This document shows, piece after piece, positions 10,205-62,560 of a stretch of DNA of 64,000 bases. Below the pieces are notes generated by a model. It was not told the DNA's origin. It did no database searches and worked only from the letters and a program-made list of their open reading frames with translations. How positions within the stretch are numbered: the first letter of the stretch is position 1; every line of letters begins with the position of its first letter. The position numbers and the translations under genes are program-made. Source of the stretch: an uncultured Thermococci archaeon (lineage in GTDB: Archaea; Methanobacteriota_B; Thermococci; Methanofastidiosales; B48-G16); NCBI GenBank assembly GCA_964595645.1, contig CAZQQT010000007.1, forward strand, positions 64,001 to 128,000, read 5' to 3'.

Positions 10205-10696
10205 ATGGCAATTTTTGGACTGATAGCAGTTGGGTTCCTCGGTATCGGCTACTTTCTATACTACTCGCTGAAAGCACTGGCATGGGTTATCTCAACATTT
10301 TACAACACGTACTCCGCATCCACTAAAGAGAAAACGGAACGGCAGAAACAGAAGTACAGGGACAAAGTCAATGAGGAGTTCGGGAAGACATCCCGACGCA
10401 AATCCACGAGAACACGATCCCACTATAAAAAGACGTATTCATCACACTCATATCATAGTACAAAATCGAGAGTTGCATCACAATCTCATCGTAGTACAAA
10501 ATCGAGGGTGGCGAAGGCACTCCATCTCCTTGAAATCTCACGGAAAGCATCCATAAAAGAGATAAAACGTGCTTACAGAAAGAAAGCGAAGAAGTACCAT
10601 CCCGATACAAACGGTGGTCATACAACAAGAAAATTCATCGAACTCACCAACGCGTACAAGCTCCTCCTCACACTTAAAAAACAGGGGGCGATCTAA
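10205..10696 (+). CDS. Membrane-anchored DnaJ-domain protein
   Basis: N-terminal TM helix; C-terminal J domain EIKRAYRKKAKKYHPD; AGGTGA SD. Confidence 0.85.
   Translation: MAIFGLIAVGFLGIGYFLYYSLKALAWVISTFYNTYSASTKEKTERQKQKYRDKVNEEFGKTSRRKSTRTRSHYKKTYSSHSYHSTKSRVASQSHRSTKSRVAKALHLLEISRKASIKEIKRAYRKKAKKYHPDTNGGHTTRKFIELTNAYKLLLTLKKQGAI
10441..10512 (+). repeat. Tandem 36-bp duplication (SHSYHSTKSRVA / SQSHRSTKSRVA)
   Basis: atcacactcatatcatagtacaaaatcgagagttgc followed by atcacaatctcatcgtagtacaaaatcgagggtggc. Confidence 0.85.
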
Positions 10697-56066: not shown

Positions 56067-57332
56067 TCATTTCTCCATTCGTCGTTTGAGCGATCGTGCA
56101 TGCCCATATAACCCTTCCGTCTCTGCAAGCATCCTCGCTATACTACCTATCTTTTCAATTCCCGTTTTCGTCACGCGGAGAGTTGTCTGAAGCTTAACGA
56201 AATCTATGGCACTCAAGCCGCCGGTATACCGCGCACCGGTATTAGTAGGGAGTGTATGGTTGAGTCCGCTGCTGTAATCACCGAGAGCTTCGGCAGCGAA
56301 GGATCCGACAAAGAGCGATCCGTAGTTTCGTAGGCATGGGATGTACTGGTCGGGATCGCGTAGCTGAAGTTCCAGATGTTCAGGTGCCCTTTTGTTCGCA
56401 ATTTTAACTGCTTCGTCTATTCCCTCGGTAAGAATCATCGCCCCGTGCGCTATCGCCTTCTCAGCAGTGGATCGTGTGGGGAGCCCCTCGAGCTGGTGTT
56501 GAAGCTCCGTTGCAACCCGCTCCGCCAAGGTTACCGATGGTGTAACTAAGAGTGGTAATGCATTGTCATCGTGTTCCGCTTGCGCAAGCAAATCGGCTGC
56601 AACGATCGCCGGATCCGCTGTCTCATCGGCAATGATCATGAGCTCGGTGGGGCCTGCGAGGAAATCGATGCCTACAGCACCAAGCACCTGTTTTTTTGCC
56701 GCTGTGACGTACGTATTTCCAGGTCCCACGATTTTATCCACCTTTTTGATAGATTCTGTTCCGTAGGCCATAGCCCCTATCGCCTGGACACCTCCCACTT
56801 TATACAGTTCGTCCACGCCGACACGGGCTGCTGCGGTGAGAAGTGCTGGATGGATGGTACCCTCATAGGTTGGGGGTGAGCAGACAGCGATCTCCTTCAC
56901 TCCTGCAACAACAGCTGGAATGCAGCACATAAGCAGTGTAGAGAGAAGCGGTGCCTGCCCGCCGGGAACGTAGACACCCACACGATCTATCGGGATAATT
57001 TGCTGGCCGGCGAAGACCCCAGGGGCGATCTCCATTTCAAATGCGGTGAGCTGGGAGAACTGACGTTCGGCGAACTGTGTGATGTTCCTCGCAGCTGCAT
57101 CGATTGCGTCCGCCACAGACGTATCTGTCACGTGAACTGCCTCTCTGAACTCGTGACCCTCTACTCGAAGTTTTTCCAAGACCACATGGTCAAACTCGAG
57201 GGTATAGCGCTTCACTGCCCTATCTCCTTTCTCTCGTACCTCTTGGAGTATTGTTCTCACTGTATCCAATTCCTCAGGCTCCTTGTACGTAAAGAACTCA
57301 TCCGTGAGTTCATCTGCAGTAACAATCCTCAT
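56067..57332 (-). CDS. hisD: Histidinol dehydrogenase
   Basis: VGVYVPGG, GGVQAI, GPGNTYV.AAK, AGPTE, QAEH, APEHLEL, GDY, NHTLPT. Confidence 0.96.
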   Translation of the reverse strand: MRIVTADELTDEFFTYKEPEELDTVRTILQEVREKGDRAVKRYTLEFDHVVLEKLRVEGHEFREAVHVTDTSVADAIDAAARNITQFAERQFSQLTAFEMEIAPGVFAGQQIIPIDRVGVYVPGGQAPLLSTLLMCCIPAVVAGVKEIAVCSPPTYEGTIHPALLTAAARVGVDELYKVGGVQAIGAMAYGTESIKKVDKIVGPGNTYVTAAKKQVLGAVGIDFLAGPTELMIIADETADPAIVAADLLAQAEHDDNALPLLVTPSVTLAERVATELQHQLEGLPTRSTAEKAIAHGAMILTEGIDEAVKIANKRAPEHLELQLRDPDQYIPCLRNYGSLFVGSFAAEALGDYSSGLNHTLPTNTGARYTGGLSAIDFVKLQTTLRVTKTGIEKIGSIARMLAETEGLYGHARSLKRRMEK

Positions 57333-58582
57333 TCTTTTCTCCTCCGTGCAAGCTCATAAAATACCTCATCAAGGGGTATCCCTCGTTTTGCCAGCAAAAC
57401 AGTAGAAAAGTATAGGAGATCGGCAATTTCCCATATCACCCCTTCGTCTGTTTCTGCCTCTACTACCTCCTGCGCTTCCTCCAGAATCTTCTCTCTGAGG
57501 AGAGGATCAGTTAGTGTGGCAGTATACGATCCCTGCTGTGGGCTGTTCAGCCTGTCCTGGACTATCTCGTAGAGCTCATACAACTCGTAGTCTCTCTCGC
57601 CGAAACAGGAGTACGATCCCGTATGGCAGGCGACACCTTCCTGCGCTACAGTAGCAAGAATCGTGTCGCCATCGCAGTCTGCCCTCATCCGTATAAGCTC
57701 CTGCGTATTCCCCGAGGTTTCTCCTTTCTGCCACAGACTATCCCGGGATCGAGAGAAGTACCACATCTTTTCCGTCTCAAACGCTTTTCGAAGCGACTCT
57801 TTACTGCTGTACGCGAGCATGAGCACCTGTCCTGTGGTATCCTGTGTGATTGTTGGAATGAGGTCACTATCCCATCTCAGCGAAGCAATGAAGGCTTCTG
57901 TAAGATCTATTTTTCCTGTATAGAGTGCCATGCCGAGTTGAATATCCACTCCCATCCGTGAGAGCTCCCGTATCTCCTTCATCGTGCTCACTCCTCCAGC
58001 AACGGTGATCGGGTTCTCTGTGGTGTGTACCAGCGCTTCCACTACGTCCATGTCAGTTCCCTTCATTGTGCCTTCACGTTCCACGCAGGTAAAGAGGAAC
58101 TCGGCAGCGTATGTCTCCAGATGCGAGACTGTCTCAAGGAGATCGAGTCCTGTAGTGTGTCGCCATGCGTCGGTCACGATCTCTCTGTGGAGAGCATCAA
58201 TGGCAATGATCACTCTGTCTCTTCCCACCGCCGAGACCAACGCTTCAAGAAAACCGTCGTTGATCCTGCCGCTATCAAAGGCTTTCGATCCGACGATGAT
58301 CTTTTTCGCGCCGAGAGAAATGAGCTCCCGTGCATGTTCCGGTGTCCGTACTCCACCACCCACACGACAGTCCCCAATTCTCAGGATCTTTTTTACTGTC
58401 TCAGCATTATCGCCTTTGTTCATGGCGGCATCGAGATCGATGACTGCGATCTCACCGTATCTATCAAACTCTCTGGCAAGAGAAAACACATCCTCACGTT
58501 CAAGCATCTTTTTCCTTCCCTGTTGTAACTGCACCGCCTTTCCCTCTTTGAGGTCGATGGAAGGGATGATCATCGTACGCAC
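57329..58582 (-). CDS. hisA-hisIE: HisA-HisI-HisE trifunctional fusion
   Basis: HisA (IIPSIDL..GKAVQL.QG, IDLDAA, VGGG.R, EREGTMKG, AGGV), HisI (VLMLAY, SRSR..LWQKGETSGN, DCDGD, ACHTG..SCF), HisE (SYTA.L, EEAQE, EIADLLYF). Confidence 0.92.
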   Translation of the reverse strand: MRTMIIPSIDLKEGKAVQLQQGRKKMLEREDVFSLAREFDRYGEIAVIDLDAAMNKGDNAETVKKILRIGDCRVGGGVRTPEHARELISLGAKKIIVGSKAFDSGRINDGFLEALVSAVGRDRVIIAIDALHREIVTDAWRHTTGLDLLETVSHLETYAAEFLFTCVEREGTMKGTDMDVVEALVHTTENPITVAGGVSTMKEIRELSRMGVDIQLGMALYTGKIDLTEAFIASLRWDSDLIPTITQDTTGQVLMLAYSSKESLRKAFETEKMWYFSRSRDSLWQKGETSGNTQELIRMRADCDGDTILATVAQEGVACHTGSYSCFGERDYELYELYEIVQDRLNSPQQGSYTATLTDPLLREKILEEAQEVVEAETDEGVIWEIADLLYFSTVLLAKRGIPLDEVFYELARRRKE

Positions 58583-59322
58583 ACTCCTCTTTTCTTTAGA
58601 TACGTCTTGATCTCCTGTACTGTGTACTCACCGTCGTGAAGAAGGGATGCCAGGAGAACGGCATCTGTCTTTCCGTTTTCCACTACCTCGTATATTTGTT
58701 CGAGGGTTCCAGCCCCACCTGATGCAATAACTGGGATGTTCACGCTCTCAGAGACTGTCCTCGTGAGCTCAAGATCGTAGCCTTGCTGCGTTCCGTCTCT
58801 ATCCATAGAGTTGAGCAGGATCTCGCCTGCACCAAGCGCTTCGCCTTTTTTTGCCCAGGAAATAACATCAACCCCCGAATTATTCCGTCCACCATGGGTA
58901 TAGGCGTACCATCGGGTCCCTCGTTTTTTCGCGTCGACAGAGAGTACGATACATTGGGATCCAAAAGTCTGTGCCCCGCGAGAGAGAAGATCGGGGTTGT
59001 GGAGGGCGGAAGTGCATAGTGCAACTTTATCAGCGCCTGCATTCAGAACAGCACGCATATCCTCAACAGTTCGCAATCCTCCACCAACTGTGAGCGGAAT
59101 GAAGACCTCTCTCGACACGCCCCTCACTACATCGATAAGGATCTCTCTACTTTTATAGGAGGCTCCAATATCGAGAAAGATGAGTTCATCGGCTCCTTGA
59201 TCATTGTACCGTCTCGCAAATTCCATTGGATCGCCTACATCGCGGAGTTCCTTAAATCTTACACCCTTTCTCACTCTTCCCTCGTCTACATCGAGACAGG
59301 GAATAATCCGTGTTGTTAACAT
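58570..59322 (-). CDS. hisF: Imidazole glycerol phosphate synthase, cyclase subunit
   Basis: RIIPCLDV, GADELIFLDI, PLTVGGG, GAGEILLNSMDRDGT, IASGGAG. Confidence 0.97.
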   Translation of the reverse strand: MLTTRIIPCLDVDEGRVRKGVRFKELRDVGDPMEFARRYNDQGADELIFLDIGASYKSREILIDVVRGVSREVFIPLTVGGGLRTVEDMRAVLNAGADKVALCTSALHNPDLLSRGAQTFGSQCIVLSVDAKKRGTRWYAYTHGGRNNSGVDVISWAKKGEALGAGEILLNSMDRDGTQQGYDLELTRTVSESVNIPVIASGGAGTLEQIYEVVENGKTDAVLLASLLHDGEYTVQEIKTYLKKRGVCVR

Positions 59323-59912
59323 TGTCTCACCCAGTTTTTCAGGAGGTTAAGCCCAATTTTTCCGCTCTTTTCCGGGTGAAACTGCACAGCGTAGATCTTA
59401 CCCTTTCCAATCACAGAAGGGTAGGAGACACCATACTCGGTGGTGCCGATCACAATGGACTCCTCTGTACGAACGTAGTACCCGTGCAAAAAGTAAAAAA
59501 AGGAACTATCATCGATTCCTTCCATTAACGGCGAGTTCCGTTTTATAGAAACGTTGTTCCACCCTATCTGTGGTACTTTATACCTTTCAAACTCAACGAC
59601 ATTGCCGCGGAAAATGCCAAACCCCCTCGTATCCTCCGCCTCTTCACTTGTTTCAAAAAGGAGCTGCATGCCGAGGCAGATCCCTAAAAACGGCCTATCC
59701 GCGCGTATCCAGTCATCAATATGCTCATACATGCCTGAAAACACTAGCCGGAGAATCGCAGAACGGAATGCACCGACACCTGGAAGAATCAGGCCATCTA
59801 TCCCTCTAAAATCTTTTTTCGATTCGACAACTTTGTATTGTGTTCCCAAGTATTCTAGCGCTTTTTTTACTGAAAGGAGATTTCCAGCTCCATAATCTAC
59901 TATTCCAATCAT
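59316..59912 (-). CDS. hisH: Imidazole glycerol phosphate synthase, glutaminase subunit
   Basis: DYGAGNL, LPGVG, GICLGMQ, VPQIGWN, QFHPEKS. Confidence 0.97.
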   Translation of the reverse strand: MIGIVDYGAGNLLSVKKALEYLGTQYKVVESKKDFRGIDGLILPGVGAFRSAILRLVFSGMYEHIDDWIRADRPFLGICLGMQLLFETSEEAEDTRGFGIFRGNVVEFERYKVPQIGWNNVSIKRNSPLMEGIDDSSFFYFLHGYYVRTEESIVIGTTEYGVSYPSVIGKGKIYAVQFHPEKSGKIGLNLLKNWVRQC

Positions 59913-60496
59913 ACTATCCCCTTTGTGCTTGGTATAGCGTTTTTTCGCCGTTTTTCAATAGTGCACGCCCTCTTCAACGAATGTCCGAAGGCTTTAAAGA
60001 TTGCCTCGATCTTGTGGTGATCGGAACGGCCGTAATACACGTGCACATGAAGTGTGGCCCCCAACGATCCAACAATCCCCTGAAAAAAATCGTTTAACAA
60101 CTCAGTAGAGAGATCACCAACTCTCTTGTTTTCAAAGGTTGCATGCATGGTGAGATGGGTTCTGTTGGATATATCGACGGCAGTCATTGCCAACGCGTCA
60201 TCCATGGGGCAGACAAAGAACCCCGTCCTACAAATGCCTCTTTTATCACGCAATGCTTTCCTAAAAGCTTCGCCCAGTACAATTCCTGTATCTTCGACAG
60301 TGTGGTGCTGATCCACCGCTGTATCACCGTGTACTTCCATTTCCAGATCAAAGACTCCATGCTTCGCAAAGGTCTCCAACATGTGCGTTAAAAACCCTAT
60401 AGGTGTTTTTACAGTGCTCTCTCCCGTTCCATCAAGGTTGAGCTCTATTCGTATCTGTGTCTCCTTTGTGTTTCTCTCAACAACAGCAGTTCTCAT
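59909..60496 (-). CDS. hisB: Imidazoleglycerol-phosphate dehydratase (monofunctional)
   Basis: RNTKET, FLTHML, DQHHTVED, PMDD, DHHKIEAIFKA, PSTKG. Confidence 0.97.
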   Translation of the reverse strand: MRTAVVERNTKETQIRIELNLDGTGESTVKTPIGFLTHMLETFAKHGVFDLEMEVHGDTAVDQHHTVEDTGIVLGEAFRKALRDKRGICRTGFFVCPMDDALAMTAVDISNRTHLTMHATFENKRVGDLSTELLNDFFQGIVGSLGATLHVHVYYGRSDHHKIEAIFKAFGHSLKRACTIEKRRKNAIPSTKGIV

Positions 60497-61560
60497 ATTG
60501 ACACATCTCCCATTCCTTTTTCCTCTCGGGGTAGAATATCTCTCAGTACGCTAAGAAACGCGGTATTTTCGCTGCGGGTACCGACAGTTACTCGAAGATA
60601 TCCGTCCATTACTGGCAATGAGCTGAGATCCTTCACCAGTATTCCCCTTTTCTCTAAGGCGTTTTTGATACACTCGGCATCCTGTCCCACATTGACCAAG
60701 ATGAAATTTGTAGCCGTAGTACGCGTGTTAACGCCCAGTTTTCTCAATGCACTGGAAAGAAACGCCTTTTCCTTCTGTATATGGTTGACCATGCGACCTA
60801 TATAGGCAGTATCGGCAAGTGCTGCTCTCCCTGCAGCAACAGCTGCAGCATTAACAGAAAAAGGAGAAACCACCTTTCGAAGCTCGTCAATGATCTCTTC
60901 ACTCGCTACGGCCATACCCAGCCGCAGACCGGCCAGCCCAAATGCCTTGGAAAAGCTGTGGACTGTAATGAGGTTTTCGAACTCCTCGACGAGATCGACG
61001 TACGACTCACCGGCAAAGTGGTAGTAGGTTTCATCCAGCACGACCAGTGAGTTGCTCATTTCCTCCATGATGTCAACGAACTCATCTTTGTCGATGCACG
61101 TGCCGGTGGGGCTTCCTGGATTCACAACAACCACAAGCTTCCCTGACTGTGATACGAGGCGTTTCGTTGGAAAGGAAAGATCCTCATTGTACATCACAGG
61201 TACCACCTGTGCTCCTCGTATCTGTGCCAAGATTTCGTACATGGGAAATGTCGGAGAGGGGAGTATCGCCCTATCTCCCTTTCCAATGTACGCGTTCATC
61301 GCCGCTTGAATCGCTCCATTGGCACCATTGGTGAGAAGAATATTTTCAGGGGGTACTGCTAAATACGTTGAAATTTCCTCAACTAACTGAGAATAATCCG
61401 GGTATAAGCTTATATCATTGGAATCCAGAGCGTGAAGAGCTTCTAGTGCCTTCGATGAGCAGCCTCTAGTATTCTCGTTGAGGTTCAGCCGTATAGCAGA
61501 TTTTCGTAATTTAGGTGGTAGATACGGTGAAACCTCAGCCAGTTCCTCACGAGCTCTCAC
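60493..61560 (-). CDS. hisC: Histidinol-phosphate aminotransferase
   Basis: LNLNEN, NP.SPTG, DETY, SFSKAFGLAGLRLG, NFIL, LRVTVGT. Confidence 0.93.
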   Translation of the reverse strand: MRAREELAEVSPYLPPKLRKSAIRLNLNENTRGCSSKALEALHALDSNDISLYPDYSQLVEEISTYLAVPPENILLTNGANGAIQAAMNAYIGKGDRAILPSPTFPMYEILAQIRGAQVVPVMYNEDLSFPTKRLVSQSGKLVVVVNPGSPTGTCIDKDEFVDIMEEMSNSLVVLDETYYHFAGESYVDLVEEFENLITVHSFSKAFGLAGLRLGMAVASEEIIDELRKVVSPFSVNAAAVAAGRAALADTAYIGRMVNHIQKEKAFLSSALRKLGVNTRTTATNFILVNVGQDAECIKNALEKRGILVKDLSSLPVMDGYLRVTVGTRSENTAFLSVLRDILPREEKGMGDVSI

Positions 61561-62411
61561 AGGACCACCTTCCGCAACTCGTACTCCAGAATGTCGGTCG
61601 CACCGAGGTTTTTGAGTTGTGGTATCAGTTTTGCTGTTTCCGTCCGTTTCACCGCAATTTTTACCGCGTACCCTTTCTCCCCATAGAGTGGTGCCATAGT
61701 TGGAGATCGCATGCAGGGGAGACTCTGAATGATTTCATCGGCTCTCTCTTGAGGAACGTTCATCTCAAGCATGACCCGTTCCCGGGCGTCAAGTACCGCC
61801 TCAAACAGCGTCGTTAATTCGTCGATCTTCTCTCGTTTCCAGGGATCCTCCAACGCCTTTCTACTTCCGATAAATCGAGTGGATGAGTTCAAAAGTGTGC
61901 TGACAACGTGGAGGTTGTGCTTCTCGAGTGTCCGTCCAGTGGAGGTGTTATCAACGATCATATCAGCATCGTCAGGAGGAAAAACCTCTGTTGCACCGTG
62001 GGTCCGTAAAAATACGTAGTCGTATCCTTCTTTCTTAAGAAAATTCGTGGTGATTCTCTCGTACTCAGACGCAACGACGATCCTTCTCTCATGGAGATTT
62101 TCGTGCAGAAGATCCTCCGGTACCGCCGCCACAATTTGTACGGGATCGAACCCGAGATCCAGTACCTCCACCACATCCGCACCTGTTTCAAGTACCCAAT
62201 CATGTCCAGTAACCCCGACATCGTGCGATCCCAGCTCGAGAAGTGTTGGGATATTCTGCGGTTTCATTATTTTCATTTCAAGCTCTGTGTCACTGACAGT
62301 AGGTCTGTACGTTCGCTCCTTTACCTCTATCCGTATGCCTGCCTCGTTCAGAAGGCCGATCACATTCCCATGAATCCTACCCTTCGGTATAACAATTCGT
62401 AATGTTGTCAC
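61557..62411 (-). CDS. hisG: ATP phosphoribosyltransferase, long form
   Basis: IPKGR, G.TG.D, VASEY, GATE, D.IVD..STG.TL, C-terminal regulatory domain (PCMRSPT...LGATDIL); GGAGGTG SD. Confidence 0.96.
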   Translation of the reverse strand: MTTLRIVIPKGRIHGNVIGLLNEAGIRIEVKERTYRPTVSDTELEMKIMKPQNIPTLLELGSHDVGVTGHDWVLETGADVVEVLDLGFDPVQIVAAVPEDLLHENLHERRIVVASEYERITTNFLKKEGYDYVFLRTHGATEVFPPDDADMIVDNTSTGRTLEKHNLHVVSTLLNSSTRFIGSRKALEDPWKREKIDELTTLFEAVLDARERVMLEMNVPQERADEIIQSLPCMRSPTMAPLYGEKGYAVKIAVKRTETAKLIPQLKNLGATDILEYELRKVVL

Positions 62412-62443
62412 AAAAGCACCTCCCCTCTTAAAAAGGAGATTAG
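62412..62443 (-). promoter_or_regulatory. Hairpin sequestering the hisG Shine-Dalgarno site, with a U5 tract
   Basis: mRNA AUCUCCUUUUUAAGAGGGGAGGUGCUUUU-GUG: AUCUCCUUU (62440-62432) can pair with AGGGGAGGU (62426-62418), which covers most of the SD GGAGGUG (62423-62417). Confidence 0.6.
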
Positions 62444-62521
62444 TTATCGATGGTGATGCAGTCCCGACACTACCTTAGAAATACCAATGTTCGTAGGTGT
62501 ACATTGTTGGTCAGGATACAT
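62444..62521 (-). CDS. Putative his operon leader peptide (HisL-like) MYPDQQCTPTNIGISKVVSGLHHHR
   Basis: ATG 62521 to TAA 62444; CAT-CAC-CAT at 62458-62450; 32 nt upstream of the hisG start. Confidence 0.72.
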   Translation of the reverse strand: MYPDQQCTPTNIGISKVVSGLHHHR

Positions 62522-62543
62522 CACGCCTCTTTCTCTTTGTCCC

Positions 62544-62560
62544 TTTATAAATGTTTTCCC
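62544..62560 (-). promoter_or_regulatory. Archaeal promoter (BRE + TATA) of the his operon
   Basis: GGGAAAACA-TTTATAAA on the minus strand; standard spacing puts the TSS at about 62521-62524, on the leader start codon. Confidence 0.65.

Follow-up and report, generated by a model that had tools for sequence, protein, structure and literature searches.

A conserved histidine-codon leader and a hidden Shine–Dalgarno sequence precede the his operon of a Methanofastidiosales archaeon

How might an archaeon adjust a histidine operon of bacterial type to its supply of histidine? The question is raised by a 64,000-nucleotide stretch of the genome of an uncultured Methanofastidiosales archaeon, analyzed here at its full length and called the window. 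A first-pass annotation of its sequence described a short leader ORF with histidine codons and RNA pairing around the ribosome-binding site of hisG. The genome that carries this leader is 1.97 Mb and near complete. Its operon runs in the order hisG-C-B-H-F-A/IE-D. The window HisG belongs to a clade of six proteins (P0001-P0006, support 99) nested among sequences from KSB1, Calditrichota, WOR-3, Planctomycetota and Spirochaetota. Outside this small archaeal clade the nearest hisG relatives are bacterial, and identity to the HisG of Methanofastidiosum is distant, at ~38%. The his operon thus appears to have been acquired from bacteria. Gene fusions occur at several of these loci. HisA and HisIE are fused in the window (57329-58582). 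HisC is fused to a HAD hydrolase, likely a histidinol phosphatase, in one homologous locus (L192:5852-7525) and not in the window, and a HisC-HAD hydrolase fusion is also present at L171:3853-5553, judged by length and sequence. The features discussed below are, in the order of transcription:

62544-62559, minus strand: archaeal promoter, with a BRE-like purine run (62559-62552) and a TATA box (62551-62544).
62444-62524, minus strand: leader ORF, with GUG at 62524 and AUG at 62521, 25 codons from the AUG, ending His-His-His-Arg-stop.
62510-62524, minus strand: 5' arm of helix P1, the predicted first 15 nt of the transcript with both start codons.
62485-62506, minus strand: inner 6-pair stem (62506-62501 with 62490-62485), weak and partly conserved.
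62453-62468, minus strand: 3' arm of helix P1, the Ser-Gly-Leu codons and the first two His codons.
62450-62458, minus strand: putative sensor codons His-His-His, followed by an invariant CGA and UAA.
62432-62440, minus strand: anti-Shine–Dalgarno (anti-SD) strand, the 5' arm of hairpin P2, with its core invariant in five of five leaders and a U5 tract (62434-62430) overlapping it.
62417-62426, minus strand: 3' arm of P2 with the hisG SD (62423-62417), complementary to the 3' end of the 16S rRNA encoded on contig C2 of the genome.
61557-62411, minus strand: hisG, long form with a GUG start, the first gene of the operon.
56067-61560, minus strand: hisC, hisB, hisH, hisF, fused hisA-hisIE and hisD, with overlapping ends.

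The motifs placed by the first-pass annotation (the leader stop, the 3-nt gap, the anti-SD, the SD, the U5 tract, the His block and the stems) all proved correct in position on the minus strand. We compared five related leaders: that of the window and those of L191, L002 (genome G001), L192 and L193, whose HisG proteins are 73-88% identical to that of the window. All five share the BRE/TATA motif and an exact 19-nt gap to an RUG-AUG start. Genome-wide, the TATA-to-ATG distance peaks sharply at 19-23 nt, and the two leader starts lie 19 and 22 nt after the TATA box. Because this spacing falls inside the genome-wide peak, the leader ORF is probably leaderless or nearly so, with transcription starting at or within 3 nt of the start codon.

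Every one of the five ORFs is 25-26 codons long and ends in HH(H)R followed by UAA. Indels within the ORF are whole codons only, and the gap from stop to hisG varies freely between 29 and 35 nt (32 nt in the window, where the leader stop lies at 62446-62444). DNA 5' of the TATA box is 29-49% alike between leaders, and the stop-to-start segment is 76-88% alike. The middle of the leader peptide is not conserved. This run of histidines is the only one among the 32 TATA-linked short ORFs of the genome that carry a triple residue. We regard the leader as real and probably functional. Two further regularities were seen in the ORF. An 8-nt stretch over two Val codons (62479-62469, minus strand) is invariant in all five leaders and mostly unpaired in the folds; a weak SD-like role, an extension of P1 or a constraint on the peptide are candidate causes. 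A CGA or CGG arginine codon directly follows the sensor codon in 5/5 his leaders and in 3/3 trp leaders (62449-62444 in the window), and these codons are not especially rare in the host genome.

The leader could nonetheless sense nothing. It might be a constitutive coupling ORF, a relic or a chance ORF, with the operon under a transcription factor as trp is in other archaea. The comparison covers few leader sequences (n = 5), the his genes of Methanofastidiosum have short leaders that lack a His ORF, and the known archaeal cases use proteins: TrpY of Methanothermobacter and Tar/TK0271 of Thermococcus are DNA-binding proteins that act on transcription initiation of amino-acid operons (PMC6737238). 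That source mentions neither attenuation nor leaders. These proteins perform, in related archaea, the same task that we ascribe to the leader. Such a reading is improbable given the His run kept in 5/5 leaders through whole-codon indels, given the chance of ~2e-4 that the genome's codon usage allows a His triple in an ORF of such length, and given that three other leaders in this genome, described below, also carry cognate codons.

Leaders of this type appear to be narrowly distributed. A covariance model of the leader matched only the window and G001, members of a single genus, among 121 genomes of the class, and among 77 loci it recovered its training sequences and no bacterial locus. No new leaders emerged from searches with short HisG pieces and the neighboring MsrA, and none carrying His codons was found upstream of hisS. 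The sixth clade member (P0006; L194:1-25) has only 25 nt of upstream sequence; a U run and a variant purine-rich SD are kept before its hisG, and the contig ends before the leader would begin. Rfam returned no relevant family for the leader, with no His_leader match at E up to 5.

Downstream of the leader stop, the hisG SD is predicted to be buried. Hairpin P2 begins 3 nt past the stop and pairs 62440-62432 with 62426-62418 (9 pairs, 4 of them G-U), and across the leaders the SD sits 17-23 nt past the stop. Opening the window SD costs 7.1 kcal/mol, a value reached by 3.9% of the 485 SD-bearing genes of the genome. Costs across the leaders are 7.1-8.5 kcal/mol, and the four homologues fall in the top 2-3% on the same scale. 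Seven of eight P2 pairs are invariant in the five sequences while the loop changes in length, and because the pairs are invariant P2 shows no covariation. Formal covariation over the whole leader, which the first-pass annotation had named as a check, was not above the shuffle control with these five related sequences. Conservation and energy together indicate that P2 is real. The annotation's central proposal is supported: a leader ORF with His codons is coupled to a hairpin that hides the hisG SD, and the pair most likely acts on translation.

A consensus scan labels P2 terminator-like. The hairpin is not a typical bacterial intrinsic terminator, because it has only 3 G-C pairs and is followed by only 4 U in a row, and the annotation was right that a GC-rich hairpin with a poly-U tract is absent. 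No alternative anti-P2 helix, of the kind an antiterminator would form, was found in the folds.

What, then, would open P2? On the annotation's account, a stall at the His codons lets the ribosome free the SD directly. The footprint measured for an archaeal ribosome, that of Haloferax, is 27 nt long; its 5' edge lies 12 nt and its 3' edge 15 nt from the P site (PMC7261190). From these values we derived a footprint of A-15 to A+12 and refolded the leaders under it, at equilibrium and 37 °C; folds at 50 and 55 °C gave the same pattern. Counted from the first base of a codon, the distance to the start of P2 is 12-13 nt for the last His codon, 18 nt for the first His codon of the window and 6-7 nt for the leader stop. 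In naked RNA, opening the SD costs 6.7, 7.4, 7.5, 8.4 and 10.3 kcal/mol in the five leaders, the last being L193. With a ribosome on the His codons the costs are 6.6-10.7 kcal/mol. With a ribosome at the stop they are 0.6, 2.5, 1.3, 7.3 and 3.6 kcal/mol in the same order. Thus at the stop the cost is 0.6-3.6 kcal/mol in four of the five leaders, and L192 stays costly (5.6-7.3 kcal/mol). The whole ribosome-binding site behaves in the same way when the upstream RNA is left out. In these folds, a ribosome stalled on the His codons leaves P2 shut, except in part in L193 or if the ribosome reaches further, and a ribosome at the Arg codon or stop opens the SD.

Direct melting deserves a closer look. 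It states that a His-stalled ribosome covers the His-block anti-SD or accessory helices and so destabilizes P2, in the style of cat/secM or the mycobacterial poly-Cys leaders. The constant start of P2 after the last His codon places it at the very edge of the footprint, and allowing the ribosome 2-3 nt more reach than measured lowers the SD cost on the last His codon by 0.6-3.3 kcal/mol. L193 loses an accessory helix when its His region is covered, and its cost falls from 10.3 to 7.3-8.6 kcal/mol. This is the only clear drop; the measured footprint leaves the SD cost unchanged in the other four leaders, contrary to the annotation's claim. P2 is opened much further by a ribosome at the stop than by one at any His codon, so the sign of such a switch would hinge on dwell times. 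P1, described below, is left unexplained. We consider direct melting unlikely.

The second anti-SD proposed by the annotation bears on the same point. The His block (62459-62452) does form 7 of 8 pairs with 62423-62416, and the duplex with the SD reaches -9.6 kcal/mol in three leaders. It decays in the two others, L192 and L193 (-3.5 and -4.6 kcal/mol), and in naked RNA the block is taken up by P1, both of which count against direct melting. The complementarity largely follows from the likeness of His codons to the 16S tail. Two further candidates were set aside. A third anti-SD in mid-leader, with a duplex of -8 to -10 kcal/mol, was no better than random genomic 36-mers (p 0.10-0.56), and a state with two stacked ribosomes did not open the SD more consistently.

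The annotation also offered transcription attenuation, in which the position of the ribosome gates access of the termination factor FttA (aCPSF1) to U-rich RNA after the leader. Termination would fall before hisG, and the hairpins would set pauses or access. The host genome encodes aCPSF1/FttA, and the window has the U5 tract in P2 and a U4 tract after the hisG SD. aCPSF1 binds U4 tracts (PMC8716108), and polarity in archaea is ascribed to FttA (PMC12548453). The U tract itself fits this reading poorly. It is U5 in two of the five leaders and U3 in the other three, and it is buried in the P2 stem, so that no conserved accessible U4 tract, as expected of an FttA/aCPSF1 terminator, was found. 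A His-stalled ribosome would end near 62441 and leave 62434-62430 uncovered, and a ribosome at the stop comes closer. The invariant portion of P2, moreover, is the complement of the SD. The U5 tract and the factor are thus present as proposed, and FttA gating as the switch is rather improbable.

P2 opening taken alone would give more hisG with more histidine, since ribosomes that have passed the His codons open P2. This is the wrong sign. A second structure, at the 5' end of the leader, could supply the right one. Minimum free energy folds contain a 15-pair helix, P1, in which the start codons (62524-62510) pair with 62468-62453, including His codons. Since AUG and GUG read as His codons when reverse-complemented, a pair of His codons can lock an RUG-AUG start. 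The nested stem noted by the annotation is present (62516-62510 with 62468-62462) as only the inner part of P1, and the 6-pair inner stem is broken in some homologues. Because the nested stem belongs to this longer helix, the fold of the annotated span alone is no better than shuffles (z -0.41) and improves to z -2.12 when the 5' end of the leader is included.

Across the five leaders, 90% of the cells of P1 are paired, with one-sided changes in five pairs and a two-sided change in one. We fixed the start codons and randomized the next 10 nt; against this control, four leaders pair significantly beyond the automatic match of start and His codons (p 0.002-0.013), and L193 does not (p 0.32). P1 differs between the two sub-clades. 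In L193 the best fold lacks it, and the hisG start is covered by another helix. The case for P1 is made by conservation and folding energy, since five related leaders give a covariation test too little power. When a ribosome covers the His codons, the cost of opening the first 16 nt is predicted to fall from 10.9, 11.5, 9.0 and 7.8 kcal/mol to 4.0-4.7, 5.5, 2.3-3.3 and 6.2 kcal/mol, respectively, in four leaders; L193 shows no gain.

These results suggest a route in which P1 would act as a latch on initiation at the leader and P2 as a coupling lock on hisG. With plentiful histidine, a ribosome would run through fast and P1 would close behind it, blocking new loading. P2 would stay shut, hisG would rarely be initiated, and FttA polarity might cut the untranslated operon mRNA. 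On starvation, a ribosome waiting on the His codons would hold P1 open. The next ribosome could load on the free 5' end (66 nt would fit two 27-nt footprints), and the relay would continue. Each ribosome arriving at the stop would melt P2 and allow hisG initiation; such translational coupling by RNA unfolding is well established (PMC12548453). When run with assumed rates, a toy kinetic model yields 1.3- to 12-fold induction. The sign is the right one, and the model speaks to the sign only, not to the size. The route has weak points: P1 in L193, the residual structure at the stop in L192, the modest modeled fold change and the 29-35 nt stop-to-start spacing, which lies at the limit of what reinitiation-type coupling allows (PMC12548453). 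We think it very likely that the leader uses the ribosome to sense histidine. That it does so by this latch-and-coupling route is a tentative proposal, with somewhat less than an even chance of being right.

Recoding or peptide sensing would place the signal elsewhere. Here a ribosome hungry for His-tRNA would shift frame or bypass and be driven through P2, or the nascent peptide would arrest at the Arg codon and stop. Any frame shift does carry the ribosome at least 4 nt past the leader stop, and both the CGA-UAA and the Val-Val codons are invariant. The fate of the shifted frames is not conserved, though: the -1 frame fuses to hisG in two leaders, the +1 frame in one, and the others stop at scattered sites. 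The P-site codons (CUG, AUA and His) give no slippery site, and the sequence divergence in mid-peptide speaks against a sensed peptide. We find both forms very improbable and return to the latch and coupling lock as the preferred route.

If the ribosome reads histidine supply here, similar leaders might precede other amino-acid operons, and the same genome has three. Before trpE, ~105 nt upstream, lies a leaderless 21-codon ORF ending Trp-Arg-Phe-stop (C2:141067, minus strand; L205). This trp leader, with 21-22 codons, a Trp-Arg-Phe/Leu-stop end and the same promoter spacing, occurs in three genomes of two families (the host, G001 and G007; L204-L206), and its start region can pair with a segment just past the stop. 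In G001, trpE (L204:1498-1500) has ATC where the host has ATG, behind a strong SD, which may be a non-canonical start, a mutation or an assembly error. The 38-codon ORF before pheA is acidic and contains a single Tyr codon and three Phe codons (C2:134463, minus strand; L203 near 10460-10650); the pheA product has chorismate mutase, prephenate dehydratase and ACT domains. No homologue of the pheA leader was found in genomes G001-G005. The third leader is an acidic ORF containing codons for Tyr, Phe and Trp; it runs in a different frame across the SD and start codon of DAHP synthase (C2:132431, minus strand; L214). It resembles the pheA leader and is kept in G001 (L215), that is, in two genomes. 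In Methanofastidiosum, the aro operons (L216-L229) have a conserved leaderless 22-codon ORF with a Tyr/Phe-rich end at 10 loci or more. Some 50 nt separate it from the SD of the leading aro gene, and its 5' end can pair with a segment adjoining the SD hairpin.

Each leader carries codons for the amino acid that its operon makes. When the trp and aro leaders were folded with a ribosome footprint imposed, SD access did not clearly switch at any position. It is because the host has cognate-codon leaders before trpE, pheA and DAHP synthase that we hold ribosome-mediated amino-acid sensing to be very likely. A fuller picture would have the His codons serve both as sensor and as lock on their own start codon, so that a stall switches on re-loading of the leaderless mRNA and the operon; the leader would be one of a set of His, Trp and Phe/Tyr leader switches built by this archaeal order, not taken over with the bacterial operon. 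Taken whole, this picture is more apt to fail in some part than to hold. That the conserved His leader has Trp and aromatic counterparts within the host genome and its order does suggest that the ribosome serves some archaea as a gauge of charged-tRNA levels.

For bacteria, control by leader-peptide attenuation is textbook knowledge. Xie and Reeve in 2005 reportedly discussed a two-codon Met-Trp leader before trpE in Methanothermobacter. Our literature search, mostly without subscription journals, found no archaeal leader-peptide attenuator or His-codon leader. Because the his leader has no bacterial terminator, its 110 nt could serve as a test bed for open questions, among them the regulation of leaderless initiation, the reach of the archaeal ribosome in melting RNA and FttA polarity as a switch.

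The closest known systems are the mycobacterial polycysteine leaders (Ms5788A), leaderless small-ORF attenuators whose Cys codons pair with the SD region, so that a stall frees the SD directly (bioRxiv 10.1101/834739). The archaeal leader shares with them a leaderless small ORF whose start coincides with the transcript 5' end (judged from promoter spacing only), a 3'-end run of sensor codons, a cognate operon downstream, control at a hidden SD (in the top 2-4% of opening costs) and the lack of an intrinsic terminator. It differs in its archaeal host, in that its main anti-SD lies past the stop and beyond the footprint of a ribosome stalled on His codons, and in that its His codons pair with the leader's own start codons. 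In the computed test, the stalled ribosome did not cover the SD-hiding strand in four of the five leaders. The archaeal leader would thus act like a leaderless-ORF translational attenuator, closest to the poly-Cys leaders minus one defining feature, the coverage of the anti-SD by the stalled ribosome.

Other likenesses are partial. In cat-86/secM/ermC and Bacillus subtilis rtpLP, the position of the ribosome on the leader ORF sets SD access, and the inhibitory stem starts within a few nucleotides of the stalled codon; in the archaeal leader, P2 starts 12-18 nt from it. Another is the coupling of MS2 coat to lysis and of rpmI to rplT, in which a ribosome that has reached the stop of the first gene unfolds the ribosome-binding site of the second and leaves it unobstructed (PMC12548453). 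The computed footprint at the leader stop likewise overlaps the inhibitory helix and not the SD. In those cases, the upstream gene encodes an ordinary protein, and no amino acid gates the coupling.

Like enterobacterial hisL (Rfam His_leader, RF00514), the archaeal leader is a His-rich ORF before hisG. Unlike hisL, it matches no Rfam family, has no GC-rich terminator or antiterminator, places its His codons last rather than early and is separated from hisG by only 29-35 nt. Among the bacterial kin of the window hisG, many have a His leader, which lies 75-190 nt upstream and is often accompanied by a hairpin and a U run. Because the archaeal leader model finds no bacterial locus among the 77 loci searched, we see no recognizable homology between the archaeal leader and bacterial His leaders, and by sequence it stands outside the hisL/RF00514 family.

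His-rich leader ORFs before hisG were seen in Calditrichota, Bacteroidota, Spirochaetota, Acidobacteriota and Aminicenantota. The bacterial His-leader loci are L118, L116, L117, L042, L123, L071, L150-L154, L163, L169, L172, L175-L177, L180 and L185; five bacterial His-leader loci compared with Rfam gave no match at the gathering score. One further case comes from a very AT-rich archaeal bin labeled Methanosarcinales. There, a near-leaderless 10-codon ORF ending His-His-His-stop lies ~120-155 nt before hisG (L171:2811-2843). The 5' end of this ORF could form a helix with RNA just beyond its stop, and its sequence is unrelated to that of the window leader.
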